From positions 1-64,000 of IMG/VR virus record IMGVR_UViG_3300022407_006288: a stretch of DNA of 64,000 bases. One strand, given 5' to 3'. Source of the stretch: a virus. A program made the translations under genes and the position numbers. The notes beneath the pieces were generated by a model. It was given only the letters and a program-made list of their open reading frames with translations. It ran no database searches and was not told the origin of the DNA. This document shows, piece after piece, positions 1-22,300 of the stretch (the first letter of the stretch is position 1; every line of letters begins with the position of its first letter).

Positions 1-657
1 TATGCTATGGATTTCCTAGTACCTGCCAATAAACAAGTAGCCGGTGATAGTGACACCTGTATTAATGCAAAAGGTAGACACGTGATCATTATTGGTGGCG
101 GGGATACAGGTTCGGACTGTGTGGGAACTGCTAACAGACAAGGTGCTACACATATCACACAGCTAACACGTTCGTCACAGCCGCCGGAACAAGATGATGT
201 ATTGGTATGGCCGGGTTGGCCCAACAAAATGCGTACCAGTTCATCTCATGAGGAGGGATGTGACCGGCTTTGGTCGGTACTTCCCAAACGCATAGACGGC
301 AAAGATGGTCAAGTAACTGCGCTGACAGCAGTGAGATTAGAATGGGTTAATGGCAAAATGCAGGAAATTCCGGGTAGCAAGTTTGAGATCAAAGCAGATT
401 TGATACTGTTAGCCGCAGGCTTTGTAAGTCCCATGCAACAGCTTGTAGATGCATTTGGCGTCGAACAAGATGCTGACAAAAATGTTAAAGCCAGTACTGA
501 CGGCGGCATCGCTTATCGTACCAATATTGATAAGGTGTTTGTAGCAGGTGACATGCGCCGTGGACAGAGCCTCGTGGTTTGGGCTATACGTGAAGGCAGA
601 CAGGCAGCACGGGCAGTTGATGCTTATCTTATGGGGAAAAGTGTACTGCCGTTATGA
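1..657 (+). CDS. gltD: Glutamate synthase small subunit, C-terminal part (gene begins upstream of window)
   Basis: NADPH-binding GGGDTGSDC and C-terminal AGDMRRGQSLVVWAIREGR motifs; frame is open from base 1, so the Met at 7 is internal. Confidence 0.92.
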   Translation, partial: YAMDFLVPANKQVAGDSDTCINAKGRHVIIIGGGDTGSDCVGTANRQGATHITQLTRSSQPPEQDDVLVWPGWPNKMRTSSSHEEGCDRLWSVLPKRIDGKDGQVTALTAVRLEWVNGKMQEIPGSKFEIKADLILLAAGFVSPMQQLVDAFGVEQDADKNVKASTDGGIAYRTNIDKVFVAGDMRRGQSLVVWAIREGRQAARAVDAYLMGKSVLPL

Positions 658-673
658 TTAAGATAAGTAAGGG

Positions 674-880
674 ATGAACATAATTAAATGGATATGTTTT
701 GGTATTATGCTGTCAGGGGCTTTGGTAACAAGTCTACAGCCGGATACCATCATAGGCGTTGAACTGCTGTTTGTGGGCAACGTGGCTTGGCTGATTACCG
801 CTATCTATAGTAAGTATTGGCCCAGTGCCGCAAACTTTTCTATGCTGGCATCAATATGGTTGCTGGGTGTGATAAAATAG
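674..880 (+). CDS. Small membrane protein, ~3 hydrophobic segments, unknown function
   Basis: 68 aa, strongly hydrophobic, AAGTAAGGG RBS-like sequence upstream, sits between gltD and iscS. Confidence 0.65.
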
Positions 881-888
881 TATATAAT
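860..888 (+). promoter_or_regulatory. Sigma70-type promoter for iscS-glyA-sdhA
   Basis: TTGCTG-17 bp-TATAAT, followed by GAGGAG RBS and ATG at 904. Confidence 0.7.
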
Positions 889-903
889 GTAGAGGAGAAC
901 ATA

Positions 904-2124
904 ATGATAGATTACGCAGAATTTCCAGTTTACTTAGATTATAGCTCAACTACACCCATGGATCCACTGGTGGTGGATGCCATGATTCCCTACATGCGTG
1001 AGCAGTTTGGAAATCCTGCATCGCGTAGTCATGCCTATGGATGGAGTGCTGAAGCTGCCGTGGAGCAGGCTAGACAACATGTGGCCAATTTGGTGTCAGC
1101 AGATCCTAGAGAAATTGTTTGGACAAGTGGTGCTACCGAAAGCATAAATCTTGCTATCAAGGGCGCAGCCAAATTCAGAAAAGGACAAGGTCAACATATC
1201 ATTACAGTAAAAACTGAACACAAGGCCACCCTGGATACTTGTCGGGAACTAGAGCGTGATGGATGGCAAGTGACCTATCTTGATGTACAACCCAATGGCT
1301 TGATTGACATGGCACGGTTAGAGTCGGCTATACGGCCCGATACAGTGTTGATCAGCGTGATCTATGTCAACAACGAAATTGGTGTGATACAGGATATTGA
1401 AAAAATTGGTGAACTGGCCAGATCACGAAATATTGTATTTCATGTGGATGCAGCACAGGCCACCGGCAAGGTAGAAATTGATCTACAACGACTCAAGGTT
1501 GATCTCATGAGTTTTTCAGCACATAAAACCTACGGCCCTAAAGGCATTGGCGCTTTGTATGTATGCCGCAAACCGCGAGTGAGAATTGAAGCACAGATGC
1601 ACGGCGGTGGGCATGAACGCGGCATGCGTTCAGGTACATTGGCCACACATCAAATTGTAGGTATGGGCGAGGCATTTAGGTTGGCCAAGCTGAATTTGCA
1701 GGAAGAGACTGCCCGTATCAGAATATTGCGTGACCGATTGTTAGCAGGCCTAGAAACAATAGAGCAAGTCTTTATCAACGGAGATATGAGTCAACGTGTG
1801 CCACATAACCTTAGTATCAGTTTTAACTATGTTGAGGGCGAAAGCATGATCATGGCCCTAAAACAGCTAGCGGTAAGTTCAGGGTCTGCGTGTACATCGG
1901 CTAGCCTTGAGCCAAGTTATGTGTTGCGAGCACTAGGTCGGAATGACGAATTGGCACACAGCAGTATACGATTTACTCTAGGGCGATATACTACCGAACA
2001 AGAAATAGACTTTGCTATTGAGTTAATTCAACGCAAGATTGCTGGGCTAAGAGAACTTAGTCCGCTTTGGGAAATGTACAAAGATGGTATCGATCTAGAC
2101 ACCATACAGTGGTCCAGCCATTAA
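904..2124 (+). CDS. iscS: Cysteine desulfurase IscS
   Basis: [12 protein letters not shown]-lysine [10 protein letters not shown], catalytic SSGSACTS, IscS-type C-terminus [10 protein letters not shown]; start moved from 817 to 904 on the GAGGAG RBS. Confidence 0.96.
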
Positions 2125-2143
2125 CATACCAGAAAGAATAGCC

Positions 2144-3292
2144 ATGATAGATCCCAGAATTCATACAGTCCTACTCGATGAGGGCAATAGACAGGTAAAT
2201 ACCATTGAATTAATTGCCAGTGAAAATTATACCAGTCAAGCGGTAATGGACTTGTGCGGTAGTATCTTTACCAACAAGTATGCTGAAGGACTTCCGGGTA
2301 AACGTTACTATAACGGATGTGTCAATGTAGACGAAATTGAAAATATTGCTATAGAATATGCTACCAAGTTATTTGGATGTGAGTATGCCAATGTTCAACC
2401 GCATTCAGGTGCCAATGCTAATTTGGCAGTGTTTAAAGCATTCTTAAAACCCGGTGATGTTATTGTGGGTATGGACCTGGCTAGTGGCGGGCATTTAAGT
2501 CACGGTGCTAAAGTTAATGCCAGCGGTGCTTGGTTTGAATCGTACACCTACGGGGTTAATGATCAGGGATTGATTGATTACGAAGCGGTAGCACAGCTAG
2601 TTTTAGACACAAAACCGGCAATGGTAATTGCTGGTGCTAGTTCATATAGTCAAGTGATTGATTGGAAGAGGTTCCGCAAGATTGCTGATTCAGTCAATGC
2701 ATTGCTGCTTGCAGATATAGCCCATTACTCGGGACTAGTTGCGGGAGGCGAATATCCAAGTCCGTTCCCTTATGCTGACATAGTGACTACCACCACACAC
2801 AAGGGACTGAGAGGTCCACGAGGCGGAATCATCATGTGGAACAATCCGGAATACTGCAAGAAAATAAACTCGGCAGTATTTCCTGGAACACAAGGCGGTC
2901 CACTCATGCATATTATTGCGGCTAAAGCACAATGTTTTTATGAAGCGTTGCAGCCCGACTTTAAGTTGTATGCCAAGCGCATCCGTATCAATGCACATGC
3001 CATGGCACAGACATTTTTAGATGCCGGTATTGATGTTGTCAGCGGCGGGACACAATGCCACATGTTTACTTTAGACCTGCGTAAAGAGCAATTGAGTGGT
3101 AGACAGTATGCTGACCTGCTCGAAACACATGGCATCACAGTAAACAAAAATGGTGTACCTGGCGAAACTAGAAGTTTTGTAGAAACGAGTGGTGTACGTA
3201 TTGGTGTTGCAGCCGAAACTACCCGAGGACATGATGAAGCATGGTTCAAAGAATTGGCTAATAGAATGATTGCAATTTTAAGAGATAATTGA
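2144..3292 (+). CDS. glyA: Serine hydroxymethyltransferase (382 aa, short C-terminus)
   Basis: LIASENY, YAEGLPGKRYYNG, NVQPHSG and PLP-lysine TTTTHKGLRGPRGG motifs. Confidence 0.95.
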   Translation: MIDPRIHTVLLDEGNRQVNTIELIASENYTSQAVMDLCGSIFTNKYAEGLPGKRYYNGCVNVDEIENIAIEYATKLFGCEYANVQPHSGANANLAVFKAFLKPGDVIVGMDLASGGHLSHGAKVNASGAWFESYTYGVNDQGLIDYEAVAQLVLDTKPAMVIAGASSYSQVIDWKRFRKIADSVNALLLADIAHYSGLVAGGEYPSPFPYADIVTTTTHKGLRGPRGGIIMWNNPEYCKKINSAVFPGTQGGPLMHIIAAKAQCFYEALQPDFKLYAKRIRINAHAMAQTFLDAGIDVVSGGTQCHMFTLDLRKEQLSGRQYADLLETHGITVNKNGVPGETRSFVETSGVRIGVAAETTRGHDEAWFKELANRMIAILRDN

Positions 3293-3302
3293 GAATTATA
3301 GA

Positions 3303-5090
3303 ATGAACAAAATACAAAGTAAAAAATTTGATGTTGTGATTGTGGGCGCGGGAGGAGCAGGTATGAGGGCCAGTCTGCAATTGGCACGTGTTGGACTGAG
3401 GGTGGCGGTGATTTCCAAAGTGTTTCCAACACGTAGCCATACAGTAGCAGCACAGGGTGGTATTGGCGCGGCACTGGGCAACATGAAAGAAGACAACTGG
3501 CACTATCACTTTTATGATACTGTAAAAGGATCTGACTGGTTAGGCGACCAGGACGCTATTGAATTCATGTGTCGTGAAGCACCCAAGGCAGTATATGACT
3601 TAGATCACATGGGCATGCCTTTTGATAGAAATGAAGACGGCACTATCTATCAGCGTCCTTTTGGTGGGCACACTGCCAACTACGGCAAAGAACCTGTAGA
3701 AAGAGCCTGCGCTGCCGCTGACCGTACTGGTCATGCCATGCTGCATACTTTATATCAAGCCAATCGTGCTGCCGGTACTACATTTTTTGTAGAATGGCTG
3801 GCATTGGATCTAATACGAGATGGTGAAGGTGATGTGTTGGGTGTGACAGCAATGGATATTGAAACAGGTGCTACACAAATTTTTGAAGCCAAGTCCACAT
3901 TGTTGGCTACAGGTGGTGCTGGCCGTATTTATGCTGCATCAACTAATGCTTTTATCAATACCGGCGACGGATTGGGAATGGCTGCTAGGGCCGGTATTCC
4001 TCTCGAAGACATGGAGTTTTGGCAATTCCATCCTACCGGAGTTGCCGGTGCTGGGGTGCTGTTAACGGAAGGTTGCAGAGGAGAAGGTGCTATCTTGGTC
4101 AACGCTCTGGGAGAACGATTCATGGAACGCTATGCACCCGTGTTAAAAGATCTAGCACCTAGAGACTTTATTAGCCGTTGCATGGATCAAGAAATTAAAG
4201 AAGGTCGTGGTTGTGGTCCTAACAAAGATTATATCTTGTTAAAACTGGATCATCTGGGCACTGACACTATTATGAAAAGACTGCCTTCGGTTTATGAAAT
4301 TGGCAAAGACTTTGCCAACGTGGATGTTACAAAAGAATCCATTCCGGTAGTACCCACCATACATTATCAAATGGGCGGTATTCCTACTAACATCAATGGT
4401 CAAGTGGTTATACCTAAAGACGGCAATCCTAATCACGTGGTTAATGGTCTGTATGCAATTGGTGAATGTTCTTGTGTATCAGTACACGGGGCAAATCGTT
4501 TAGGTACCAACTCACTGCTGGACTTGTTAGTGTTTGGCAAAGCAGCAGGCGATCATGTTGTAAATTCCAATCTAAAGAACAAACAGCACAAGCAATTGCC
4601 AGCAGATGCCGGTCAACAATCATTGGATCGTATTAATTGCCTGAACACCAATTCCACAGGCGAGTATGCTCAAACTGTGGCTAATGATATTCGTGATACC
4701 ATGCAAAAACATGCCGCAGTGTTTCGCACACAAGCCAGCATGGACGAAGGTGTAAACAAGATTGCTGAATTAAGACTACGAGTAGCCAATATCGGGCTCA
4801 AAGATAAAAGTATGGAATTTAACTCGGCAAGAGTAGAAGCACTAGAGGTAGCAAACTTGATTGAAGCAGCCGAAGCCACCATGGTCTCCGCGGCTGCTCG
4901 TCGTGAATGTCGAGGTGCTCACACTGTGGCAGACTATGAGAATGTGGAAGGTTGTGCCAATGGTCGAAACGATAAAGAGTGGCACAAGCATACATTGTGG
5001 TACAGAGAAGGTAATAGATTAGACTACAAACCAGTGCAGATGACACCACTAACCGTAGAATCTGTGCCACTTAAAGTACGTACATTTTAA
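3303..5090 (+). CDS. sdhA: Succinate dehydrogenase flavoprotein subunit
   Basis: GAGGAG FAD loop, RSHTVAAQGG covalent-FAD His, QFHPTG, TEGCRGEG, APRD, HYQMGG and HGANRLGTNSL all intact. Confidence 0.96.
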   Translation: MNKIQSKKFDVVIVGAGGAGMRASLQLARVGLRVAVISKVFPTRSHTVAAQGGIGAALGNMKEDNWHYHFYDTVKGSDWLGDQDAIEFMCREAPKAVYDLDHMGMPFDRNEDGTIYQRPFGGHTANYGKEPVERACAAADRTGHAMLHTLYQANRAAGTTFFVEWLALDLIRDGEGDVLGVTAMDIETGATQIFEAKSTLLATGGAGRIYAASTNAFINTGDGLGMAARAGIPLEDMEFWQFHPTGVAGAGVLLTEGCRGEGAILVNALGERFMERYAPVLKDLAPRDFISRCMDQEIKEGRGCGPNKDYILLKLDHLGTDTIMKRLPSVYEIGKDFANVDVTKESIPVVPTIHYQMGGIPTNINGQVVIPKDGNPNHVVNGLYAIGECSCVSVHGANRLGTNSLLDLLVFGKAAGDHVVNSNLKNKQHKQLPADAGQQSLDRINCLNTNSTGEYAQTVANDIRDTMQKHAAVFRTQASMDEGVNKIAELRLRVANIGLKDKSMEFNSARVEALEVANLIEAAEATMVSAAARRECRGAHTVADYENVEGCANGRNDKEWHKHTLWYREGNRLDYKPVQMTPLTVESVPLKVRTF

Positions 5091-5095
5091 TTGTT

Positions 5096-5341
5096 ATGGA
5101 AAGTAAAAAATTTGCGTGGTTGCCGACTAAAGTGACTAGTGGAAAACGTATATGGATGTCCTATTACATACTGCATCGGAACTATGTAGACCCTGCGACC
5201 GGCATGACTCCCTTGTTTAAATTATATTTTGAATGGACTGAAACCCCTCAGGAAAAAACCTGGAGACTGCTAAACGGTAATATGATACAAAATAGAAATG
5301 TTTGGAACAGTCCGATATTAACAAAACAGGATAAAATATGA
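5096..5341 (+). CDS. Hypothetical phage protein
   Basis: 81-aa ORF packed 5 bp after sdhA, FAWLP...W pattern common in small phage ORFs. Confidence 0.6.
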   Translation: MESKKFAWLPTKVTSGKRIWMSYYILHRNYVDPATGMTPLFKLYFEWTETPQEKTWRLLNGNMIQNRNVWNSPILTKQDKI

Positions 5342-5367
5342 GCATCCACGATATATCTGCTATTATA

Positions 5368-5396
5368 TTGACTCATGCTCTATTTGAGTGTATAAT
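5368..5396 (+). promoter_or_regulatory. Sigma70-type promoter with inverted repeat in spacer
   Basis: TTGACT-17 bp-TATAAT with TG extension; ACTCA-N9-TGAGT at 5371-5389. Confidence 0.8.
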
Positions 5397-5402
5397 TAAC
5401 AC

Positions 5403-5927
5403 ATGAATCAAAATGTAATGATAGATATTGAAAGCGACGGGCCTTGTCCTGGTATGCATAGCATGATCTGCTTTGGCGCAGTGATTGTGGAAGCAGGATT
5501 ACAACGCACCTTTTACGCAACATTAAAACCCATTTCAGAAACTTATGTGCCCGAAGCACTTGCCATCAGCGGATTTAGTCGTGAAGACTGCATGAAGTTT
5601 CCAGATCCGCGTGATGCCATGCAAAACTTTGATCTTTGGTTGGCAAAAAATATTCCCGGAAAGAGGCCAATTTTTTGGTCCGATAACAACTCATATGATG
5701 CAGGATTTATGAATTATTATTTTCATATGTATCTGGGTCGTAATCCGTTTGGATGGAGTTCTTCCAATCTAGGATCATTTTATAAAGGTGTTAAACAGGA
5801 TATCTATGCAAAGTTTACTCATTTGCGTGATACCGAGCATACACACCATCCGGTAGATGATGCCAGGGGTAATGCCGAAGCATTGTTAAAAATATTTCAA
5901 ATGATTAAGTCTAGATCCGTATATTAA
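5403..5927 (+). CDS. DEDDh 3'-5' exonuclease (Rv2179c-like exoribonuclease family)
   Basis: ExoI MIDIESDG, ExoII NNSYD and ExoIII HHPVDDA motifs. Confidence 0.82.
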   Translation: MNQNVMIDIESDGPCPGMHSMICFGAVIVEAGLQRTFYATLKPISETYVPEALAISGFSREDCMKFPDPRDAMQNFDLWLAKNIPGKRPIFWSDNNSYDAGFMNYYFHMYLGRNPFGWSSSNLGSFYKGVKQDIYAKFTHLRDTEHTHHPVDDARGNAEALLKIFQMIKSRSVY

Positions 5928-5939
5928 GAGAGCATATGT

Positions 5940-6179
5940 ATGAGTAATAAAAACTATGTAATTGAGTTGGCTAAAAAATCTGGTATTGACAATGATATAT
6001 TTGCGGTATCTAATCGTGCTGTAATTGAATTTTTTAACGCCGTTGTAGAGGAGTGCGCAAAGGTTGCAGAAAGGCAGGCACGAAGTTATACTGGTGAAAG
6101 TAACGAACACGTGGGCTGTCGTGATTCTGCAACAGCAATTCGTACATTTGGTAAACTAATTGACAACTATGAAATCTAA
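5940..6179 (+). CDS. Hypothetical phage protein
   Basis: 79-aa ORF with AAGAGAG RBS, within tightly packed run. Confidence 0.6.
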   Translation: MSNKNYVIELAKKSGIDNDIFAVSNRAVIEFFNAVVEECAKVAERQARSYTGESNEHVGCRDSATAIRTFGKLIDNYEI

Positions 6180-6315
6180 ACAATATTTTCAAAAAAATCA
6201 TTCACATAAAACAAATGAAGAATTACATCAAGAAGTTAAAACTCTTGAAGATGAGAATGAAACGCTTAAAGCATTAATTAGAGATATTCTCAAAATGTTG
6301 GGGGAGAAAATTTAA
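6169..6315 (+). CDS. Small coiled-coil protein (48 aa, not in ORF track)
   Basis: MKSKQYFQKNHSHKTNEELHQEVKTLEDENETLKALIRDILKMLGEKI; fills the gap exactly and its TAA overlaps the next ATG (TAATG). Confidence 0.6.
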   Translation: MKSKQYFQKNHSHKTNEELHQEVKTLEDENETLKALIRDILKMLGEKI

Positions 6316-6734
6316 TGACAATGCATTTGGTGGGGCCATATTTGTCAACTACTTCCACAAAGAAAAGGGTTGAAAAGATCACAAAGGCCAAGCAACAGGA
6401 ACTGGAGCAAGGGTGGCGCGAGCGTAATCAGCGCCTAAAAGAAATGCGTCTTCCCAAGGAGTCTTTTGATCAGTATCTAGAATGGGTATACGGTCGTGGT
6501 AAAAAGACCAAAATCCAACACAAGTATGAAGTTACAAGTTCAGCTATGCCCGATAAAAGTGTCGAACCTGTTTCTAGACCAAATACCTGGACTACCGGAG
6601 CATGTGCTCTTAAGGCTTCTCCAAAATACACAGGCACACAAATTCTAGGAATTGCCACAATGCATAAAAGTAATATGGTGCCTGTTTTTAGTAATCAGGA
6701 AGCCAAGGACATTTCTACAATGAGGCGTGGATGA
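6315..6734 (+). CDS. Conserved hypothetical protein of T4-like phages
   Basis: C-terminal YTG...GIATMHKSNMVPV...ISTMRR motif that I recognise from large myoviruses. Confidence 0.7.
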   Translation: MTMHLVGPYLSTTSTKKRVEKITKAKQQELEQGWRERNQRLKEMRLPKESFDQYLEWVYGRGKKTKIQHKYEVTSSAMPDKSVEPVSRPNTWTTGACALKASPKYTGTQILGIATMHKSNMVPVFSNQEAKDISTMRRG

Positions 6735-6958
6735 GCAAAGATTTTAAAATGTTAAGAGATAGTGATTTTGATCCTTCTATTGCACCAAATGCATGGCACA
6801 ATTTTGAAGCACTAGATCGATGCCATATGATCATAATTCACATTACCGAAGCATTATGCAATCACCCGGCACTCACAGACGAAGAAGCAGAACTTGCGGA
6901 ATCTGCAGTAGACAATCTTATGGAAATATATCAGCGTCTAGGTCAAAGAACACTATAA
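6731..6958 (+). CDS. Hypothetical phage protein
   Basis: 75 aa, ATGA overlap with the upstream gene. Confidence 0.6.
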   Translation: MSKDFKMLRDSDFDPSIAPNAWHNFEALDRCHMIIIHITEALCNHPALTDEEAELAESAVDNLMEIYQRLGQRTL

Positions 6959-6961
6959 CAG

Positions 6962-7852
6962 TTATGTTCTGTCTGATTGAAGTTTATGACCTAAATTGGT
7001 ATCTAGATCTAGTGCACCGTTTTTAACATATAGTGCTCTGTTACTTAATAATTCGACCCATGTTTGATCTGCTGGATCATTTAATTTCCAGAAATCAAAT
7101 ACCATATGACTTTGAACTGGACGTACATACATGGTATGATCGGATGGTATCATCATGATTTGCGCAGTAGTTCGCATTTTCTTTGTTTGATCTGTTGTTC
7201 TAAATGCGTTTAGTTGCGGGTTATCAACATATGTTTTACACAAGTCATCAATAAGATCTTGTGGTGTTCTAGCATGTTTGACCACACGCTCTGCTATTAG
7301 CAACCTAGACTCCGAACTAATTCTGCTGGCACTTTCAGCATCATCATCTCTGGTATACTGATATCCGGCGCCTTTTAGCCAAACACCGTGATTGGTTCGA
7401 GCCACAGTGTGATCTTGCGGTATTAATCCTATTTTGTATTCAAAGTCTTTTTTGGCATAATCAGTCCATGCGCCTTCAATTAGGATCATGGTGTCACGAT
7501 CAAAAACTAAGGTACACCCAGTAAGTTTATTATCAATTAAACTTTTGACAGCAGACTTAAGGCTGGTTTCGGCAAGAGCTTTTCTTATTTTTATGCCGTC
7601 TTTGCTTGGTCTTTTGGCTCTGACGGTAATTTCTTTTTCGTCATCTAGCACCATTAAGCTGGCACTGAGTATGCATATACCGGCAGAGTTTAATCCCTCC
7701 GAATATTGTGTAATATCGTCCCAGAAATATAAAACTTCAGTGTTGTTTTCTATTTTTTTACGGAAACTAATTTCGGGCACATAATTGCGGTCCCGATTTT
7801 TAACAGCCACCCAGCCTATGTCTTTGAAGTATTTGCCAACAACTACACACAT
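6962..7852 (-). CDS. Ntn-hydrolase, NRDE/TANGO2-like
   Basis: Met-Cys start (N-terminal nucleophile), hydrophobic strand then KNRD motif, RTNHG; AAGGA RBS and late promoter upstream. Confidence 0.6.
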   Translation of the reverse strand: MCVVVGKYFKDIGWVAVKNRDRNYVPEISFRKKIENNTEVLYFWDDITQYSEGLNSAGICILSASLMVLDDEKEITVRAKRPSKDGIKIRKALAETSLKSAVKSLIDNKLTGCTLVFDRDTMILIEGAWTDYAKKDFEYKIGLIPQDHTVARTNHGVWLKGAGYQYTRDDDAESASRISSESRLLIAERVVKHARTPQDLIDDLCKTYVDNPQLNAFRTTDQTKKMRTTAQIMMIPSDHTMYVRPVQSHMVFDFWKLNDPADQTWVELLSNRALYVKNGALDLDTNLGHKLQSDRT

Positions 7853-7876
7853 AATTAGTCTCCTTAATTACCTGTG

Positions 7877-7884
7877 TATTTATC
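7877..7884 (-). promoter_or_regulatory. Late promoter GATAAATA
   Basis: TATTTATC on + strand, 25 bp upstream of the 7852 start. Confidence 0.7.
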
Positions 7885-7893
7885 AAAAGTCAG

Positions 7894-8355
7894 TTAGGTA
7901 ACTTGTCTCCAGTTGTTATTTGCAAAAATTGAAACAACAGAACCTACAGTTTTTATATCACCATTTTTTGGAGTACCCGATGGATTAACTACAGGTGTGG
8001 TACCAGTTTCATCACTGGCAACAGTGACCACTTTTTGCCAATTTGGAATTCGACCACCGGAGCTGCTTGATGATGTTCTTACAAGTAAATTGCCAGTAGT
8101 AGCACCTGTTACTTCAAAATACAGTTGACCTTGCAATGCAATAGCATCGCTGGGTATTACAGTGCCTGCAAAATTAGATACCATTTGTATGGTATTTTGA
8201 GCAATAGCTGTTCCGTAATTGACACAGTTTCTTCCGGGTAGCTGCAATCCAATTTTATTATTTGCATCGTAGTAAGTGGTATCAAGAACATTATCGGGAA
8301 CAGATATTGGATTTGTTCCATTTGAACCAGTTGGTTTATATACAGAGTATGCCAT
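7894..8355 (-). CDS. Short virion/baseplate-fibre attachment protein
   Basis: Shares N-terminal domain (LQLPG.N...YG..IAQN..QM..NFAG...P......QGQL.F) with the 8415 and 10469 ORFs. Confidence 0.6.
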   Translation of the reverse strand: MAYSVYKPTGSNGTNPISVPDNVLDTTYYDANNKIGLQLPGRNCVNYGTAIAQNTIQMVSNFAGTVIPSDAIALQGQLYFEVTGATTGNLLVRTSSSSSGGRIPNWQKVVTVASDETGTTPVVNPSGTPKNGDIKTVGSVVSIFANNNWRQVT

Positions 8356-8388
8356 TGTTAAATTCCTTAATTATGTAATGCTTTATTG

Positions 8389-8396
8389 TATTTATC
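8389..8396 (-). promoter_or_regulatory. Late promoter GATAAATA
   Basis: TATTTATC on + strand upstream of the 8355 start. Confidence 0.65.
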
Positions 8397-8414
8397 TCTT
8401 GATAAAAACTATGG

Positions 8415-10442
8415 TTAAGTTTTTATAATATAGCAGAGTGCATAGTATGGTGGGAGGTTTTTATCGGTGCCAGCCACACCGGCGCTAGCAACAGACAGAG
8501 TATGAGTGTGGCCACCCGCGTAATCCGTAGTTGGTCTCGGTGATCTATAATAATATGTTTCGTTGTCACTATCAGAATCACCTGACCCAAATAAGCTGCC
8601 CCCTGGCGTTGTATTTTCTGCAAAATATGCATCGTCGTACCCGTGTTGATGACTTCCTGCGCTATCAGTTGTGGTCGTACCGTGACCGTGACTTACAACA
8701 ACAGCATCTTTACTGCCGCCTGTTGCTCCTACAGCATATGAATTGCCTGCACCAACCACAAACTTGTCTCTTAGGTCCGGTCTTCCGGCGAGTCCATCAC
8801 ACAATGCCCATCCGCCGGGTATAGCATTTGATGCTCCCGACCATAATAAAATAGCACCGGTCGGCACTCCGTTCGCCCACGCAAGCGTACCAGCACCATT
8901 GGTTGCAAGCACTTGTCCGGCTGATCCGTCTGCTGTAGGTAGTGTATATGTTGTTCCTGTTGAAGATGCAGGTGCCTTAATCTGCACATAGCCCGATACA
9001 GTCCCCGATAATTTAACATTACCGCTTACATTAACATTGCCGGCCACATCTAATTTTGAACCAGGTGTGGTTGTTCCAATTCCAACATCACCGTTTGCCA
9101 GCACTCGCATTCTTTCGGTATTACCGGTATGTATTGTTAGCGGCAATGTATTGCCTGTTCCTGTGCTGCCCGATGCTAATCTAGCTTCGGTACTGGTAAC
9201 TATAAGTTGTGCTAAACTTGAATTGGTTGGATCACTATTATTATATGCATTAAAACTGGCCTGAGTTGAACTACCACTGGGCACTGCACCAACTGATGTT
9301 ACGTTATTTGCTGTGGTTGTTTGAAACAATACTCGATTAGAGATTGTGGCACTACTAAAATCACCAAGTATTCTTTGTTGTGTTTTACTAAAACTCAAAG
9401 AGCCTGTGGGCGTTATCCTTAATGCTTCAGTACCACCGGTATCGAATCTAATAATACCTGCTGTGCCAGATCCAGTTGATGTACCACCAGCAAGAATTAA
9501 CGGGCCGCCGTTATTATTTCCGGAACCACCAGTACCTGCACCACCGCTAACCAGTGTCTGTGCCCCGTTGACAGTTCCGGTGCCGGGGGCAAGTGTGATA
9601 TTACCGGCTGCGCCCGAAGAGGCATTGCCGGTTGATAATAGCAGTGTTCCCGAAGTTGTTCCCGGAAGTGCTGCACCAGTTTGAATAATTAATCCGTGGT
9701 TACCAGTTGCGGTTTTGATGGCACCAGACAGACTACCTAAAGTTATTGTTCCGCCGACAAAAGTAAAATTGGGAGCAAATGTTGTGGTACTTGGTGCAAA
9801 CTGAAATGGTATTTGACCAGCTGTTCCGCCTGGTATACCGCCACCACCTGCATTTACTGACGCCCAGTAAGCATTGGTTCCGTCGGTTGTTAAAAATTTA
9901 TAGTCGTTGCCAATTTGATTGGGTGCCAGTGCGTTAAATGCATCATTTGCTGTTGCAGCACCGGTACCACCGTTTGATATATTAAGTGTTGTTCCATTCC
10001 ATGAGTTATTTCCGAAGATTGAAACAGCGCCGCTAACAATTCGCATATCTCCTGTTTTAGGTAATACAGACGGGTTGACTACAGATACTTCGCCTGTTTC
10101 CAGGCTGTTGAGCGATACTATTTTTTTCCAGTTGGCAATACCGCCAGTTGTATTACTGTTGAATTTTACGTAAAGATTACCTGCACTAGCCGAAGTTGCG
10201 TTGTACCAAAGTTGCCCTTGCATTGAAATGGTGTCATTTGGAATAATAGATCCTGCAAAGTTAGATACCATTTGAACAATGTTCTGCGCAAAAGGTAGTC
10301 CATAGTCGACGGAGTTTTTTCCGGGCAATTGTAAACCAAGTTTATTAGTAGCATCATATAGGGCAACGTCAATTACATTATCGGGCACCAGTACAGGATT
10401 TACTCCATTTGCACCAACCGGCTTATATACCTCATACGTCAT
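8415..10442 (-). CDS. Tail fibre protein with C-terminal tail-collar domain
   Basis: G/T/S/A-rich fibre sequence; VPTGAILLWSG...GWALCDG...PDLRDKFVVGAG and NLPPYYALCYIIKT collar motifs. Confidence 0.85.
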   Translation of the reverse strand: MTYEVYKPVGANGVNPVLVPDNVIDVALYDATNKLGLQLPGKNSVDYGLPFAQNIVQMVSNFAGSIIPNDTISMQGQLWYNATSASAGNLYVKFNSNTTGGIANWKKIVSLNSLETGEVSVVNPSVLPKTGDMRIVSGAVSIFGNNSWNGTTLNISNGGTGAATANDAFNALAPNQIGNDYKFLTTDGTNAYWASVNAGGGGIPGGTAGQIPFQFAPSTTTFAPNFTFVGGTITLGSLSGAIKTATGNHGLIIQTGAALPGTTSGTLLLSTGNASSGAAGNITLAPGTGTVNGAQTLVSGGAGTGGSGNNNGGPLILAGGTSTGSGTAGIIRFDTGGTEALRITPTGSLSFSKTQQRILGDFSSATISNRVLFQTTTANNVTSVGAVPSGSSTQASFNAYNNSDPTNSSLAQLIVTSTEARLASGSTGTGNTLPLTIHTGNTERMRVLANGDVGIGTTTPGSKLDVAGNVNVSGNVKLSGTVSGYVQIKAPASSTGTTYTLPTADGSAGQVLATNGAGTLAWANGVPTGAILLWSGASNAIPGGWALCDGLAGRPDLRDKFVVGAGNSYAVGATGGSKDAVVVSHGHGTTTTDSAGSHQHGYDDAYFAENTTPGGSLFGSGDSDSDNETYYYRSPRPTTDYAGGHTHTLSVASAGVAGTDKNLPPYYALCYIIKT

Positions 10443-13393: not shown

Positions 13394-16300
13394 TTATGGA
13401 ATACTTATGCCTTGACTCTCGGTTAGGAACACTGCTTCTGGTGTCTGCGCATACCAAAGCCCGCCTAAGGGCACATCTTCAATGCTGGTGTACTGATTAC
13501 CCCAAATAAACTGCCCCCAGGCATTATATCCAAAGCTGGCACCAAATGCTGATGCACCATCAGCTTTGGCAGGTAGGCGAGATGCATTCCATACTGTGAT
13601 ATTTGCTCCCTCTGGTATGATATTATCTTTTTCAATCCATACAGGATTTTTAACTAGCACTAGAGGATCTTCTAAGCTGGGTATCATAACATTATGTTCT
13701 ACAGCCGATGTTCCTTGCGTTGCGCGACGAATAAGTTTTAATTCCCAGACATTTGTTTGACCAACAACGGGTTCTTTGAGTTTATATTCAATTCTTTCCC
13801 CGCCGATCCAAAAAGCAGCACCGTCTAAGTCATCGGGATCCGGAAAAATATCTGTATCGGCTGTGACAGTAATTACTTCGGTATTATCTGTAATTCCAGC
13901 AGTTGGCCACGGTATATCGCTGACTAAAGTGCCAGAATCAATTTCTGCATTTCTATAAAATTCAGTTCCGTCAAATATATTTGTATGTTCCTTGAAACTA
14001 ATAGTGTTGGCTAATATTTCAACTTCTAATACCGGGTCCCACGTGACATATTCTGATCCGCCTTCGCCAATTAATACATCTGCAATAGGCCCGTCAACTG
14101 ATTCCCATACATCTCCCCACCCCAAATACGGGGTTGGTACGCCAGTTGAAATATTTACAGGTAACTTTGTATCAACATTTATTACTAAGTTAGTGGTAGG
14201 AAACCCCATTGCAATTTCGCTGCGAGGTATATTACCCTGTAAAATAGTTAATTGACCACCATCCCACAATAGTAATGCAACAAGATCTTTAAATGGCGGC
14301 GATTGTGTTGACCCCGGGTCATTGTAAAAGTATATTGTGTATGTGGTATTAGTTAAACTTGTATTATCAACCTCTACATAAAAATCTTCGCCATTACTTA
14401 ATGCTATGCCATTATTTTGTACACTCACAATATTGGCAGGAGATATAAACGTTTGTGGACTATTTAGATACAAGTTGCTATTTGATAATGTAAAGGTAGA
14501 AGGGTATAAATGTGACATACCATTATTTTTAGATGGATTATAGGTTCCTGCTAATGAAATAGTATTTACGGTAGGCCAATCATCGTTGGGATCCGGTATA
14601 AAGTCAGCAACAGTATTATTAACAGATACAAATTGTGGCACTATATCGGCTAGTGATGATGCGTCCCACAAAAATTCATCATAATCTTTATCGTAATCTA
14701 TGTCCCAGCCAACAGTGGGTGTAAGAGTATTTTGCGGCGTGTTGACATATTGACCGGATGAATATTTCCCGCCAAATTGCAATATAAAGTTGGCTTTTAC
14801 AAATTCTTCCACAGTACCGAGCGTGGTATCAAGATGTGTATATACGCTTGTATAATCTCTAATTTGAGTATGATACGGTTTAGAATCTTTGATATAATCA
14901 ATAATATTTGTAATTTGGTCAGGTACATATAACTGATCTTGTGATAATTTTAAATTGGTTTCTTTGATGTAAATATAAGATGACTTAAACAACCAGTTGG
15001 GATTTTTCTGTTCACTTAGAACATAATTTAACATGGAGAAGAACAATTCGTTTTGATCAATGAAATATGTATTAGTCATAATTTCATTTCTAAACGAATT
15101 TAACAGCTCCCTAAGTGTAGTGGATAGATTATATTCATCGGTCGCTGTATAAACTGTACTCATTAGTTCAATTGCGCTATTTTGTAGACCAACAGTTTCC
15201 AACGAGAGTTTAGTTGTGTCAACGGGGTCTTTGATAACAGCATACAATATGTATCTTCCATTACCGCCCGGATTAGTGATGCTTGCATTATTTTTATTTT
15301 CTACAATATCCCCTAATTGTAGTAATCCGGCTAAAAGTGCAATGTCAACTTCCGCTTTAGATGCATATATAACACTGGGAGTTACATTTTCATAACCTTT
15401 TTCGTACCAGTTTGTATACTGCCAATAAATGCCTTCGGAATTTGTCTGGAAGCTACTATTCCAGGCAGGTATAGTGTCTCTAACAGGAATATATTTTAGC
15501 AATGAGTTGGCTGCTTGGACAAATACTTTTCTTGCTGCTTGAAGTTTTACAAACATACTCTGTCGAGGGCGATATAAAATACCATACTTTTCAGCATTAC
15601 TTAATAGTGGATCCGGCACAGGTAAAATTTGGCCATATTCTGGTACTGAAGTCAAAGTAGCCTGATCGTATTTGGAAATGTCCCACCCAAAAATGTCCCA
15701 GGGCAGATTATTAGCAATAACGATGCTGTTAGAAAATTTGTCTGTTACAGGTAATAGCTGAGTATATCCGCATAAACTATCTGTCATTTTGTCCCAATAC
15801 TGCGGTGTTACTACAGATTTTGTATCACCCTCTCTAAAAAATGCCCACTGAGCATGTTTTTGGTCATCTCTTAATGATACCCTATATTGAATTTGTACAT
15901 TATTTCCCTGGTATGCAAGAATTTCTTGTACATTATAAAACATGTAGGAGTTGTTTGTAGTAGTCTGCTGAATTGGGCAGAAAAAGGCAAACCCACGGCT
16001 TCTAGGACTTTGAAGCATGAGAGAAACATCAAGTGCCGCCATGGTTCTATTTTCAATATTTGGCTGATCGGTTGTGTTAAGCACCCAGAAGTAATAATTT
16101 GTTTCTGTTATGTTTGTGAATCTGTTTGATGTTACAAGTTCTACATATGTGGTAATGTCTCGGGGTATCCCGGTACCTGTATACTGTTCAGGTGGAACAG
16201 GACTTTTAACCCATTCGTAAATAGCAATAGCAGATCCTGGAAAAATTTGTCCCCAACGATTTCTTCTATAGACTAAGTTATCGTTTTCAGTTTCGCTACC

Positions 16301-19300
16301 GTCCTGAGCAATTGGTTGTTCATAATAAACATACTTAACTTGAGATAAATCCCACCATAACCTTCCTACTTGCTGTTCTCCAAAAGTTATATTTTCGCTA
16401 AACAATCGTGGATTTGAGGTAACATTATAAGATGCAGGATCTATTAATGTCATATAGGTAATATTTTGTCTTGCAGGACCAGGCAATATTGCTTTAAACG
16501 GGTCGTATATTGGCAACTGAACAAGTTCAGTACCCTTGGTATTAAACACACTTGCACTTTGAAATAATGAATTATTGATCAGTGGCTGCTGTGTTCTAAA
16601 CGCTGTAAATCCAATTCCAGATTCCGGTGTATATGTACATGTGTATACGCCCCACCTTGGTCCTGGATTATCACCACTAATTTCAACTGTGGCAGCATCT
16701 GCCCATATCTTATCAGACACACTAATATATGACGGTGTTTGAAGTGCCGGAATTGTCATAAACCTCATTGTCTTAAACAACATTAATTTTGTAAAATTAT
16801 TAAACTGGGGTATATCGGTGGCAGATATAGGATTACCTGTAAGTGTTATTAAATTATAGTAATTTTTCCCGTCATTGGCAGAATCAGTTTGTACACTATC
16901 AAATGTAAATCCGACAGTGTAGTTTGTATCACCACCAACAGATGTGGGCGGCGAAATTGTCACAGTTGCAGACACATACCCGGAACCGCCGTTGGTTATT
17001 ACAATGCCGGTTACTATGCCGCCGGCAATTGTTGCTACGGCAGTTGCATCAACACCAGTATCGCTGGTAATAGTAACTGTAGGAACAGCACTATAATTTG
17101 CACCAGTCTTTGTTAGTGTTATTGATGTAATTGCTCCGGCAGTAATATCCACTACTGAATCTATTGTTGCCTGCGCTTCAATGACTTGTAGCACAATCAT
17201 GTTACCAAAATCAGTAACATCGCCTGTAGTAGAAAACTGCGGTGTAATTAAATATGAAGAATCTGTTCTTAAAAATAAATCATTATTGGCATCAGCATAC
17301 ACATCAAATGTTTCTGGTGCAATATTAACAAGTTTATAAACGCCCCAGTCTTCCGTAAATGTTTTTGCGACCCATATAGTTTCCAATTCGACAGGATTAA
17401 AACTGTCTGTGCCCCATGTTACAGCAGTTTGATTAACATCAAATCTACTATAGGTTACATCATTAAAATTTACATAACCGGCATTGGGTGTAGAATACTC
17501 AGTTCTATTTGTAACGGGAAATTCAAGTGAGTAACTTGGATTTGTAGGGCGCACTTTCCATACATCTATTTCGTCAATACTGATATCGATAATATTATCA
17601 AGGGTGGTGTCAACAATAATTTCGCCTTGCCATACACTATATAACCTATCAAGGTTATTTTGTTCGTTACCGGAATCAATTACAACTACCGGTGCGTAAG
17701 AATATCCATACCCCGGTTCAATAATATCAATACGAGCAATCCGCTTTTCTGAATCCAATACTGCGTATGCAGTGGCTTGTCGAATTGGGTGTTTTAGTGC
17801 AGGATTATCGGAACTAATATCCGGTGCGTCAATAACAATCTTTGGCACACGAGTATATGTATTTTGAGAATTTAAAATATTAATTTCTCTTACAAACCCG
17901 ATAGTTGATGGTACAAAGTTTAGTCTTGTAACAATAACTTCGCCTGTATTTTGTTCTGGTTTTATAGTAAATTCAGTGGATACTTGTTCAACAGTATTTC
18001 CAAATTCACCTAATTTTAATGCCCATTCTTCATATACATCAACAATTTCATCATTGCCTGTACCACGAATCTGTGAAGACTTAAATAATTTTTCAAGGGC
18101 TTGTTTTGTGCCTTTTTGTCTAATAGCACCCTGGTAAAATAGATACTGTACATCGTTAGATACTTGCAAATTGTCAAGATAACTTTTACTTTCATACCCA
18201 ATCAGGTGCCTGCCGAGATCTTCAAGGCTTGGATTATCAATAACATAATTAGAATCATAGTAATACCTCATATCGCTAACAATGGTATCAAAGTTAGGCA
18301 CAAGTTGATCAGCAATAACTAGATATCCAGGTGCTTCCATTTTACCGTACCAACTGTTGCTTCTAAATCCGTTGAATCTTAGGCGCTGCTGTCTTGCTCG
18401 TAATAGAGGAGAATACACAACATCATTAAAACTAGTTGTATTATCGAATATAAGAATATGTTCGGTCTCGGAGGCATTAACTTGTAGGAAATAAATCCCC
18501 CCAACAGATAAGTTTGCTGGCGAGACTGTAATTAATGGACCATCTCTATTAACCGTGGTATCAACTGGTGCAATAGCAACACCGTATTTGTCCAAAATAC
18601 TATATATTCCATTTGTTAATGTTTCAACATCATCGGGATATCCTCGCTTGACAATTAATGTTGCTGAGTTTGCAAGCGGGCTTAATTGTATAGATGCATC
18701 AACTGCCCAGGATGTGTTTAACCAAAATAGAAACTGCTTTGCAGAAGCTAACCAGTCATTAATTTGATTTGTATCTTCGTTTACATCTTGGAACTGCCAT
18801 CCCTGAGTTTCAAGCCATGCGCCCCATCCGATTAAAAAGTCAAATACCTGTTGCGGTGTATCAAATATAGTTCCGTAGGCATAACTTGTAATGGTAGTAT
18901 CTGAAATAGGTCTGTATGTTACAGAAACACCGCCCGATATAGGAAGGGATCTTAATTTCTGCCATGCTTTTGAAATAAACCCCTGTACAGTCTGGGTAGA
19001 TAAACTTCGATAATACACGCCGTTATATCTAACAATATCGCCGGTTTTGTATGTGGCTCCCGACGTAAAATACTGAAATTCTTCAGGGGTGCCGCCAACA
19101 GAAATATCAATTAATTGATTATTTGTTCTGTTCAGTGTTTTAAATGATGCATTTAATAAATCGTATCCGTAAATAGCAAATGTGCCATCCCCGAGGCCTC
19201 TAATAATAACTCCACTATAGGAATATGTATCAACAGCAGGACTTTTGTGCAGAAGTACATTAAAATTATTTGATGGAATAATTAAGGTATTTGTTGTTGT

Positions 19301-22300
19301 ACCGGGTGATATAGATTCAATATATGTATTGGTGGTATCTTTATTTGTAAATCCGGCAAATTTATTTGCAAGATTTACGTCAAGGGTCCTGATTTTTTGC
19401 CCAAATGTTGTTGCAACATCTTTACCAAGAAAAAGTATTCTATCGCTGACCCATGATTGATAGCCTAGGCGTATTTGTACAACACTATCGACTATTTCTG
19501 CATGAACAATTTGATCTTTATTTTTTGGGCGCATCCATAGATACAAAGGATCAGTACTCTTAAATTTATCATTTTGTACATATTGCCAATCTGTATCGGA
19601 CATTACGGGACTTTTTATATCTGGTATAATCAATTGTCCGGGCAACAGTGTTGTGCCTAATGTATCCCATAATAGTTCCCCAAATGGGCCCGGGCGCATC
19701 AAGTATAGGAATTCTTGAGTACTATATGCATAAGCAGATGTTGACATCCATGCTTGCTCAACTGGCGCTCCATCTCCATATACCCACTCTGCATCAAATC
19801 CTTTAAATGGTGCATCATTGCTTGCAATACTGATATTAAATATTGCTGGTACAGAAATAATCATTCCTGCTGAGTCAACAGGAATAATTGACGATAATCC
19901 GGGCCTTGCCCACATGGGCTGTGATTGAACTTGTAAGGTATTTGGATCATAAATTGCCGAAGGGCCCTGTCTTATAATACCAGCTTCAAGATCAGCCCAC
20001 ATGTTATGTAAGCCTTGGCTTGTTGATGTCCATACTGATTGTCCGACAAGAGTCACGGGTGCGCCGTATTCTTCTATCCACCAAGACGGTTGCTGGCTGA
20101 GCCCTAGCATTTCCCACGGTCTAGTATTTGGATAATATGTATCGTAGAAGTATTGAAAGATGCCTTTCCAGTTACCGGGTAAATTTAAGGTCTGATCGTA
20201 TCCAAGATTATCCCATCCAAAAATATCCCAGTGGCCAATGCCATTTAATGCATCTCGATAATTATATAATTTCCATTTTTCAGTTACGGGAGTTATTTTA
20301 CTTGCCGATACCCAGTCGTTGGCTCTGTAATTTGCTTTATTTTTAGCAGACCATTTATTTAAATAAGATTCAGTAATAGCTAGATACTCCTGTCGGGAAT
20401 ATCGAGTTTGTCTAAAGTATCCTGATTTTACAGATTCAACACGCAACGGAACATAGTATTCATCTCGAAATTTAGTTACTATACCATTATAAATTCTTCT
20501 TTCAATCTCGAGCAATAGCTGATCTCTATAATCGTTATAGGCAATAGTTTTTGATCCATCGTGCCCAATAATAATATCTGTTGGAATTGCGTATGATGTA
20601 TCAAGTTCAATACGAGGAATATATGTAGAATATGTACCAAGCTTTGATGGAGTTGACGGTATATATGTTGACAATGGATCTTTGTATAGATAAAATGCTA
20701 ATGTTTTACCACTATACTGGTTAGATAATTTTACCTCAATAATATCGCGGGAGTCAATAACGCTGTAATCTTTGCCTACAAGAAGCATATTAGGCAAGTC
20801 TAAGTCTGATATATCATACACATACATTACATTCTTTAAATCATCTAAATCAATGTAATCTTCAAGTGTAACCAATCCGCTAGATGGGACGGTTACTACC
20901 TGTGAGAATGTAGGAACACCACTTGCGGCCATGTAAGAGTATGCAAAAGAATTAGAAAATTCTTTTGATATGTTTAATACTTTTAAAATTTGCCCAACCC
21001 ATATACTAATATCAATAGTACCATCTTGATAGCGCCTAGGATTAAATTCTTGATTGATCAACTGTAATGCAACAGTCAAATATTTATTTTTAAATTTTGT
21101 ATATTCGTCCTGACTAAATCGTATACTGGCAATAAAATCTAAGTCATCGGACGACGATACCAACATTGATTTTAATGCCGGTGCAAGATTTTGAAGGATA
21201 TATAATCCGACAGATCCATTCTTTCTAGAATCTCTGTAATTATTATTGCCACCAAACGCAACCCCGCTAAATCCAATTTGATTTGAAATAATAGATGAAA
21301 ATTGTTGAATTAAATTACTTGCGCTAATATCAGTAACTTCAAGTTGCGTAGGATTTGCCTCAAGCTGCTGCGGGATCTGAAAATAGCCAGATGCTGTCGG
21401 ATCTAATAAATCTTGAGTATATGTTTGAATTTCAACTACTGGTGGTACAAGTTGTGTGGTCAACAATAGTTGAGTTAAATAAGCGTAAAGATTGACATAG
21501 ATATTGTTTTTTATTTCTATAAGGGTATATCCAAGCGGGTTGGTTGCTGAATCATACGGATTAATTTGTGCGCTGTTTACTAAAACAATAATATCGGGCG
21601 ACTGTATAGCAGTCGCAGGATAACCATAAGGAGTAACACTTAGTTCAAATTGATATTCAGTACCATAGCCCACAACATACTGATTGATAACTCGTTGTTT
21701 ACTTAAATTGATACAATTACTTGGGGGCGCAGGTGTGATATCTGCGCAAGGGCACGGATCGTATAAATTCCAACCATTTTTTAATGTGGAGGATGTTCTT
21801 GTTTTATAATAATAGTATCCCTCAATTGGTAAGCGTATTTGTATTGTATTATTACTACCAGTATATGTATATCTGTCGGTAATTAAGTTATTTTGAAAAA
21901 CAATATCGGAAGACAATCCTAGCGAGGTATAAACAATAGGAAATCCCAATACAGGATCAACTGTTGCACCGGGCGAGGTATTGGGTTTATATGAGAAAAT
22001 TTTGTTGCCGCCTGTAAAGCTACTATCGGGATATTCTTCTAATGCAATGCCCTTATAATCGTAAAGTTCAAATAGCGGTGGCTGATTTACACGATCTTTA
22101 TCGTTATATGCTCTATTCCAGGTGCCCAAATCTAAGATATTGTCTAGATCAATAGTATAATACCACGATTGCCCTCTTTTCGAACCCCCGCGGTAAGGAG
22201 CATCCTTGTTGATAAAAACAATATCTCCGTCGTCAACTGTCTGTGATGGAAGATAAGATGTCTTTGGATAAAATAACACAGACCCGTTAGGCATAACATT

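Follow-up and report, generated by a model that had tools for sequence, protein, structure and literature searches.

The metabolic genes described here lie at the very start of IMG/VR virus record IMGVR_UViG_3300022407_006288, which measures 130,872 bp (131 kb), has a CheckV completeness of 33% and an overall G+C content (GC) of 0.385, and whose initial 64 kb (64,000 nucleotides) make up the window analyzed. Within the first 5 kb, four enzyme genes, gltD, iscS, glyA, and sdhA, run head-to-tail on the plus strand with spacers of 5-23 nt, in company with small phage open reading frames (ORFs). Taken as a whole, the evidence makes it likely that this block is a genuine metabolic island, assembled stepwise in the variable early region of an uncultured freshwater T4-type jumbo phage; some of its products may act as spare subunits of host enzymes. 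Large ORFs were named by NCBIfam and Pfam profile matches against curated cut-offs, and the features of the region are as follows.

Positions 1 to 657, plus strand: 3' end of gltD (654 nt plus stop), encoding the C-terminal 218 amino acids of the glutamate synthase small subunit, which binds NADPH, flavin adenine dinucleotide (FAD), and Fe-S clusters; the contig end cuts the gene.
Positions 674 to 880, plus strand: orf68, a small hydrophobic phage ORF with about 3 predicted membrane segments.
Positions 904 to 2124, plus strand: iscS, cysteine desulfurase, 406 amino acids from the ATG at 904; the frame is open from 817.
Positions 2144 to 3292, plus strand: glyA, short-form serine hydroxymethyltransferase, 382 amino acids.
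Positions 3303 to 5090, plus strand: sdhA, succinate dehydrogenase flavoprotein subunit, 595 amino acids, without sdhB/C/D.
Positions 3316 to 3330, plus strand: first (left) of two identical 15-nt direct repeats, AAAGTAAAAAATTTG, within the 5' part of sdhA.
Positions 5096 to 5341, plus strand: orf81, a conserved phage ORF usually found after glyA or iscS.
Positions 5100 to 5114, plus strand: right copy of the direct repeat, at the 5' end of orf81.
Positions 5368 to 5396, plus strand: sigma70-like site TTGACT-17-TATAAT, with 11/12 matches the best of the region, just 5' of the exonuclease gene.
Positions 5403 to 5927, plus strand: RNase T/DnaQ-like 3'-5' exonuclease (PF00929), the first gene common to the complete relatives.

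The original prediction, made from the letters of the window, described four intact enzyme genes in head-to-tail order. Order and strand hold, but gltD is interrupted by the contig end after 218 amino acids and is found at its full 475 amino acids on a separate 2534-bp contig. The iscS start is most likely the ATG at 904 and not position 817, because a GAGGAG Shine-Dalgarno sequence lies at 892-897 and this in-frame ATG agrees with the start of all homologs. No Pfam or PHROG family match was obtained for orf68, and orf81 gave a weak match to phrog_7749. Both copies of AAAGTAAAAAATTTG encode SKKF; the same 21 nt open orf81 in another viral contig (L173), and the start sequence is also present in L174. 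The repeat may be microhomology left at the joint where sdhA was inserted, or a chance match in AT-rich codons.

Phage hallmark genes are found at 23-59 kb of the record: gp25, gp6, a gp5-like spike with lysozyme, a T4-type portal (gp20), a gp23-type major head protein, a tail sheath, and a gp46-like nuclease. This combination of portal, capsid, sheath, gp25/gp6/gp5 baseplate, and gp46-like nuclease is that of a T4-type (Straboviridae-like) myovirus. The capsid protein has 287 relatives in IMG/VR; four of these, at 96% capsid identity, belong to genomes that measure 363-385 kb and have direct terminal repeats, so the contig comes from a T4-type jumbo phage with a genome of approximately 370-400 kb. 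Five near-complete relatives (G001-G005, capsid 80-96% identical) all carry a ThyA-family gene, whose recovery shows that these records are searchable, and GltD, IscS, GlyA, and SdhA were found in none of the five. The exonuclease is 72-78% identical at the amino acid level in G001-G004 and is followed there by homologs of orf79 and orf139; homology to these complete relatives begins at the exonuclease gene, directly 3' of the sigma70-like site at 5368-5396, which is the right border of the variable island. Since G001-G004 have the exonuclease, orf79, and orf139 in common but hold runs of small ORFs where the island sits, the island occupies a hyperplastic region.

A block that sits at the very end of a contig, has a GC of 0.43-0.48 against the contig mean of 0.385, and is missing from complete relatives could be a bacterial fragment misjoined to a phage contig end, and the IMG/VR searches, with single proteins or alignments as queries, likewise returned no other SdhA or GltD relative (very near records may be missing from these results). 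To address such an assembly chimera or host contamination, contigs from four public freshwater runs belonging to four different studies, three of the runs independent of the probable source, were placed on window positions 1-9000. In the probable source run, a 50,413-bp contig spans 1357 to beyond 9000 at a depth of 107, and the 2534-bp contig spans 1-981 at a depth of 103 and extends 1553 bp further upstream (about 780 nt upstream of gltD), so that depth is even along the block. The independent runs from the three other studies bridge every junction without mismatch: gltD/orf68/iscS by X3 (540-926) and also X2 (329-712), iscS/glyA by X2 (1949-2413), glyA/sdhA by X2 (2950-3466), and sdhA/orf81/exonuclease by X3 (4786-5532), with the sdhA end also crossed by X2 (4396-5166) and X4 (4890-5241). 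The break or chimeric join after sdhA that the original prediction had named as fatal to it is not seen in these contigs.

Composition and context point the same way. With a G+C content at third codon positions of 0.36-0.40, the cassette lies at the high end for the phage genes (0.29 +/- 0.04) and below the 0.46-0.97 of 80 bacterial sdhA genes. For relative synonymous codon usage, the correlation of the cassette with the rest of the phage genes is r = 0.53-0.66, where typical phage genes reach 0.76 +/- 0.11; with Comamonadaceae sdhA it is r = -0.1 to -0.2. Phage genes follow on the 3' side from 5096, the 5' side ends with the contig, and orf68 and orf81 are interleaved with the enzyme genes; that these small ORFs are phage-type, as had been claimed, is confirmed by their homologs adjoining glyA or iscS in other IMG/VR contigs. 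The gene order was found in none of 160 bacterial loci. A chimera or host carry-over is effectively excluded, misjoining being an extremely improbable account of these data, and the island is almost certainly a genuine part of the phage. One joint in the mapped data, 2042->3266, was considered as a possible variant lacking glyA and rejected, as it has only 21 letters on one side and its loose end is another iscS C-terminus; this joint and the high depth over 900-2100 are treated as cross-mapping of a foreign iscS.

The original prediction further placed all four genes, as an early block, under one sigma70 promoter at 860-888, which is not borne out. This site (TTGCTG-17-TATAAT) matches the -35 hexamer at 3/6 positions and lies inside orf68, 3' of gltD, so that it cannot drive gltD; transcription from it would begin within the iscS ribosome-binding site, and it is absent from the output of the promoter scanner. 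The region contains no more promoter-like sites than shuffled sequence does (22 versus 18.4 +/- 4.4). The T4 late-promoter motif TATAAATA is not enriched either (3 matches versus 9.9 expected) and gives no clue to timing. Since the genes are tightly spaced, their arrangement suggests co-transcription from a promoter beyond the contig end.

All four enzymes are intact, with phage codon usage. The part of GltD in the window matches TIGR01317 positions 256-485 with 238 bits, below the cut-off of 447.7 through truncation, while the full-length 475-amino acid protein (P0241, from the 2534-bp contig of the probable source run) scores 664 bits against the same cut-off, keeps both Fe-S Cys clusters of the N-terminal domain, and is 100% identical to the window part at its C-terminus. 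IscS scores 723 bits on NF010611 (cut-off 548) and 711 bits on TIGR02006, and aligns end to end with E. coli IscS, retaining the pyridoxal phosphate (PLP)-binding Lys (SAHK), the catalytic Cys loop (SSGSACTS), and the C-terminal tail. GlyA scores 547 bits on NF000586 (cut-off 335) and 481 bits on PF00464 and keeps the PLP-Lys motif TTHKGLRGPR; relative to solved bacterial serine hydroxymethyltransferases, its N-terminus is about 10-15 and its C-terminus about 25 amino acids shorter. SdhA scores 888 bits on TIGR01816 against a cut-off of 727 and can be aligned over its whole length to E. coli SdhA (1NEK_A); the covalent-FAD His (RSHTV) is kept, as are the HPTG, TEGCRGEG, APRD, HYQMGG, and GANRLG motifs. 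Of 311 columns invariant in 81 bacterial SdhA, 302 (97%) are kept in all six sequences of the phage clade described below, and only 2 conservative changes are fixed.

Between phage copies, the ratio of nonsynonymous to synonymous substitution rates (dN/dS) is 0.03-0.07 for iscS and 0.02-0.06 for glyA, with synonymous sites near saturation in both; these two genes are under strong purifying selection. It could be argued that the enzymes are neutral passengers, recently captured host genes in a hyperplastic region that bring the phage no benefit, as the region is variable, its content differs in each relative, close relatives lack all four genes, and the orphan subunits SdhA and GltD look useless alone. 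Recent neutral capture is at odds with synonymous divergence near saturation in proteins that remain 84-94% identical (dN/dS 0.02-0.07), with fully ameliorated codon usage, and with recurrence of the genes in several assemblies. The SdhA clade has diversified to 89-94% identity yet retained 97% of invariant sites, and the phage-type GltD clade spans 75-82% identity. We therefore regard neutral passengers as quite improbable; judged from sequence, the enzymes are very probably functional and maintained by selection.

Other viral contigs give an indication of how the island grew. GlyA has 163 relatives in IMG/VR, and its nearest 120 database relatives are all about 383 amino acids long, 81-95% identical, and metagenomic. 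Homologs of IscS are present in 32 IMG/VR contigs, four of them at 93-94% identity, and iscS also occurs in viral contigs without the other three genes; one of the 93-94% identical copies lies 3.5 kb from a gp44-type clamp loader. The arrangement orf68-glyA-orf81 is contiguous in L177, where the orf68 homolog is 78% identical and directly 5' of glyA. In L173-L179 glyA is followed by orf81, L280 has iscS-glyA-orf81, L255 has iscS-orf81, and L251 has iscS-glyA followed by other metabolic genes. The orf81 homologs in these contigs are 54-63% identical and lie directly 3' of glyA in L173-L179 and L280 and 3' of iscS in L255. In L251 (IMGVR_UViG_3300027644_000666, positions 2518-8585), the genes after iscS-glyA encode a class II aldolase, a CMD/AhpD-like protein, a PfkB kinase fragment, an NAD epimerase, and an S-adenosylhomocysteine hydrolase, which amounts to another metabolic island, of greater size, in a comparable kind of location. 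A short phage-type GlyA that is 84% identical (P0166) is labelled Haliscomenobacter sp. and located on a 148-kb contig, probably a jumbo-phage contig binned into a bacterial metagenome-assembled genome.

The short glyA of phage type, most often with orf81 behind it, is an old gene that many viral contigs carry; sdhA and gltD are the rare members of the island. An order of acquisition can be read from the interleaved phage ORFs, with glyA apparently first, then iscS, and then sdhA and gltD. The oldest module would be (orf68)-glyA-orf81, into which iscS would have been inserted between orf68 and glyA; sdhA would then have entered between glyA and orf81 from a Comamonadaceae/Sphaerotilaceae-like Burkholderiales donor, and a betaproteobacterial-type gltD would have been added upstream. 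The varied gene combinations in related phages indicate independent add-ons rather than one designed four-enzyme circuit, and the functional wiring of the four enzymes put forward in the original prediction is speculation.

In bacteria the four genes belong to separate loci, as had been stated. Neither gltD, iscS, nor glyA was found within 6-10 kb of sdhA in any of 160 bacterial loci (80 metagenomic and 80 named genomic); sdhC/D/B adjoin sdhA in these loci, and a count of sdhB next to sdhA in bacterial loci gave 80/80. In a complete Burkholderiaceae chromosome (G016), the four genes are megabases apart, at approximately 1.93, 3.48, 3.59, and 4.22 Mb. The phage genes resemble bacterial sdhCDAB, iscRSUA-hscBA-fdx, gltBD, and glyA in encoding orthologous enzymes with 51-82% identity and all catalytic motifs. 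They differ in being stripped of their operon partners and joined in one 5-kb co-directional block, in which GlyA is trimmed at both ends to about 383 amino acids and GltD has 475 amino acids versus 487 in betaproteobacteria. Thus, as the original prediction had proposed, the block belongs to the phage, whose lineage put it together from genes that bacteria keep far apart.

The same prediction had called the sequences Comamonadaceae-like as a group, which applies to SdhA only. Compared with four Comamonadaceae/Burkholderiaceae genomes, SdhA is 79-81% identical, and against Rhodoferax, Polaromonas, Limnohabitans, and other Comamonadaceae it reaches 79-82%, while the identities of IscS (70-72%), GltD (60-64%), and GlyA (51-55%) to the four genomes are much lower. 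The best bacterial match to IscS among 400 sampled genomes of the class is 74% identical; this search included four unpublished genomes (G055, G157, G312, and G324), none of which is among the top matches listed or underlies a conclusion here. The four genes were acquired at different times, perhaps from different donors. The phage host is probably a Comamonadaceae-like betaproteobacterium.

For SdhA, a large protein collection contains 5 sequences at 89-94% identity to the phage protein, ahead of Rhodoferax and other Comamonadaceae at 80-82%. For GltD it contains 7 sequences of 473-476 amino acids at 75-82% identity, ahead of betaproteobacterial GltD (487 amino acids) at no more than 69%. A tree with Acinetobacter as root unites the six phage-like SdhA in a monophyletic group, with a support of 99 in the Shimodaira-Hasegawa-like approximate likelihood ratio test (SH-aLRT); on a long stem, this group is sister to the sampled Comamonadaceae plus Sphaerotilaceae. 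SdhA and GltD each appear to form a small but distinct phage clade. A metagenome scan for sdhA returned bacterial loci only, at 78-82% identity. One candidate for a phage-borne sdhA (L367, CAKLQF020000003.1, 'Acinetobacter phage MD-2021a'; 72%) was rejected, being a 254-kb piece of bacterial chromosome with gltA, sdhCDAB, and sucA.

Contigs of identical size in base pairs, the sole basis for assigning shared carriage, pair SdhA (94%) with a phage-type GlyA (84%) at 335,294 bp, GltD (82%) with SdhA (about 91%) at 55,870 bp, SdhA with GlyA at 10,182 bp, and GltD with SdhA at 4,915 bp. This pattern suggests that sdhA, gltD, and glyA travel together. A 294,843-bp contig (P0276, P0158) carries a phage-type GlyA (85%) and a GltD of bacterial length (489 amino acids, 68% identical), which hints that a related phage gained gltD a second, independent time.

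An important question is what orphan subunits could do for the phage. By itself, GltD cannot assimilate nitrogen, nor does SdhA by itself make up complex II. Across the 131 kb of the record, no Glu_synthase match was found for gltB, no Fer2_3 match for SdhB, no tblastn match for Acinetobacter SdhB/C/D, and no NifU_N match for iscU; ThyA and ThyX are absent from the same 131 kb. The roles assigned in the original prediction, GltD in nitrogen assimilation and SdhA in the tricarboxylic acid (TCA) cycle and respiration, were therefore overstated. Its proposal that IscS could supply the clusters needed by complex II also needs modification, since SdhA carries FAD and no Fe-S cluster, and the link from IscS to complex II would run via host SdhB.

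The absence of gltB and sdhB/C/D from the 131 kb suggests that SdhA and GltD likely join host partner subunits. In such a scheme, one promoter beyond the upstream contig end would drive the genes together, and their products would keep host metabolism running during infection. SdhA and GltD would substitute for, or add to, the host's own flavoproteins, giving a hybrid phage-host complex II and a hybrid glutamate synthase, IscS would mobilize sulfur for Fe-S clusters and thio-cofactors, and GlyA would make 5,10-methylene-tetrahydrofolate for the ThyA-family enzyme of this phage group, to be used in thymidylate or hydroxymethyl-pyrimidine synthesis. For SdhA and GltD, we consider action as spare subunits a reasonable possibility, somewhat short of probable. 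In one of the near-complete relatives (G002, C1:154801-156255), the ThyA-family gene is matched in two pieces with about 475 nt between them, both in a single open frame of 503 amino acids, and it could be that an insertion or intein-like element is present in this thymidylate synthase gene.

The enzymes might instead have stand-alone or moonlighting uses. IscS could donate sulfur in tRNA thiolation, for thiamine or molybdopterin, or in DNA phosphorothioation; SdhA could be a soluble flavoenzyme of the succinate/fumarate or aspartate-oxidase-like type; and GltD could be a module that feeds electrons from NADPH into another partner. The lack of iscU, sdhB/C/D, and gltB matches in the 131 kb would fit such uses, as would the occurrence of iscS in viral contigs without the other three genes and a score for IscS of 432 bits on the DndA model, which is below the cut-off of 480. 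GltD-like modules are also known to serve other enzymes, and AegA, YgfT, NfnA, and PreT-type matches were seen. However, the equivalog or subfamily models specific for complex II and glutamate synthase (GOGAT) accept SdhA and GltD, at scores clearly higher than for related families. Of the positions that do not vary in cellular SdhA, the partner of SdhB, the phage SdhA has 97%, and the C-terminal tail of IscS is complete. Stand-alone uses are on this evidence unlikely.

Several points weigh against a selected island whose products enter host complexes. The 131 kb represent about one third of the genome, and sdhB/C/D, gltB, or iscU could lie elsewhere in it. The hybrid phage-host complexes are something that we infer purely. 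None of the four enzymes is essential, because close relatives manage without all four. Because the long-stemmed SdhA clade falls outside, and not within, the sampled Comamonadaceae, the donor and hence the host are placed only roughly. The phage location of the related sdhA and gltD copies rests on equal sizes in base pairs only, and dN/dS was computed for iscS and glyA only, not for sdhA or gltD. Finally, the promoter region of the island lies beyond the upstream contig end, and no RNA runs containing window positions 1-7000 are listed.

Comparison with known systems places the island among auxiliary metabolic genes (AMGs) of T4-type aquatic phages, the closest parallel being cyanophage psbA, whose product PsbA replaces the host D1 protein. 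As in those phages, host-derived metabolic genes are found in variable regions, ameliorated and under purifying selection, and a lone subunit would be supplied that must assemble with host partners. In contrast to psbA/D1, the host here is a heterotroph, the proteins are the flavoproteins of complex II and GOGAT instead of photosystem proteins, and the system is known from genes alone. Cellular contamination is a frequent objection to TCA and respiratory genes reported from viromes; it does not touch the present block, a clean case in which a tailed phage carries TCA/respiration and GOGAT subunits.

Of the four genes, glyA and iscS are already listed in viral AMG catalogs. Among giant algal viruses, PkV RF01 and marine Mimiviridae have a monophyletic viral SDHA clade apart from cellular homologs, which has been proposed to sustain host energy metabolism, and vSDHA is transcribed in infection (bioRxiv 10.1101/2020.07.30.228163). 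The likeness lies in a virus-encoded SdhA that forms its own clade; PkV RF01, in contrast, is a giant virus of a eukaryote and encodes all four succinate dehydrogenase subunits A-D of eukaryotic type, while here a bacterial-type SdhA alone is seen in one third of the genome of a tailed phage. In marine viromes, sdh has been listed among virome-encoded carbon-metabolism genes (Hurwitz et al. 2013, PMC4053976). Those were read- or fragment-level assignments for which cellular contamination is a concern, whereas the sdhA described here is on a 131-kb contig with hallmark genes and with junctions confirmed in independent assemblies.

The island is of a fairly ordinary kind for phage AMGs, with two rarely seen members. 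What is new is that a tailed-phage contig, itself verified, carries an orphan SdhA of bacterial type together with a GltD, that both proteins have small distinct phage clades, and that the history of the island's assembly can be read, which makes the island useful as a model of AMG island growth in T4-type phages. If the orphan subunits do become part of host complexes, abundant freshwater Betaproteobacteria would have their respiration and nitrogen assimilation tuned directly by phages in the course of infection. A broader proposition, which we offer tentatively and regard as doubtful, is that a lineage of freshwater jumbo phages follows a 'spare flavoprotein' strategy, encoding only the NAD(P)H- and FAD-handling subunits, which would join host SdhBCD and GltB, with their own IscS aiding cofactor supply. 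With such a strategy, phages of heterotrophs would carry the psbA/D1 principle beyond photosynthesis, into respiration and the assimilation of nitrogen.

Elsewhere in the window, a single ORF of 3383 amino acids on the minus strand (13394-23545) adjoins the baseplate genes and presumably encodes a giant fiber or tail protein.

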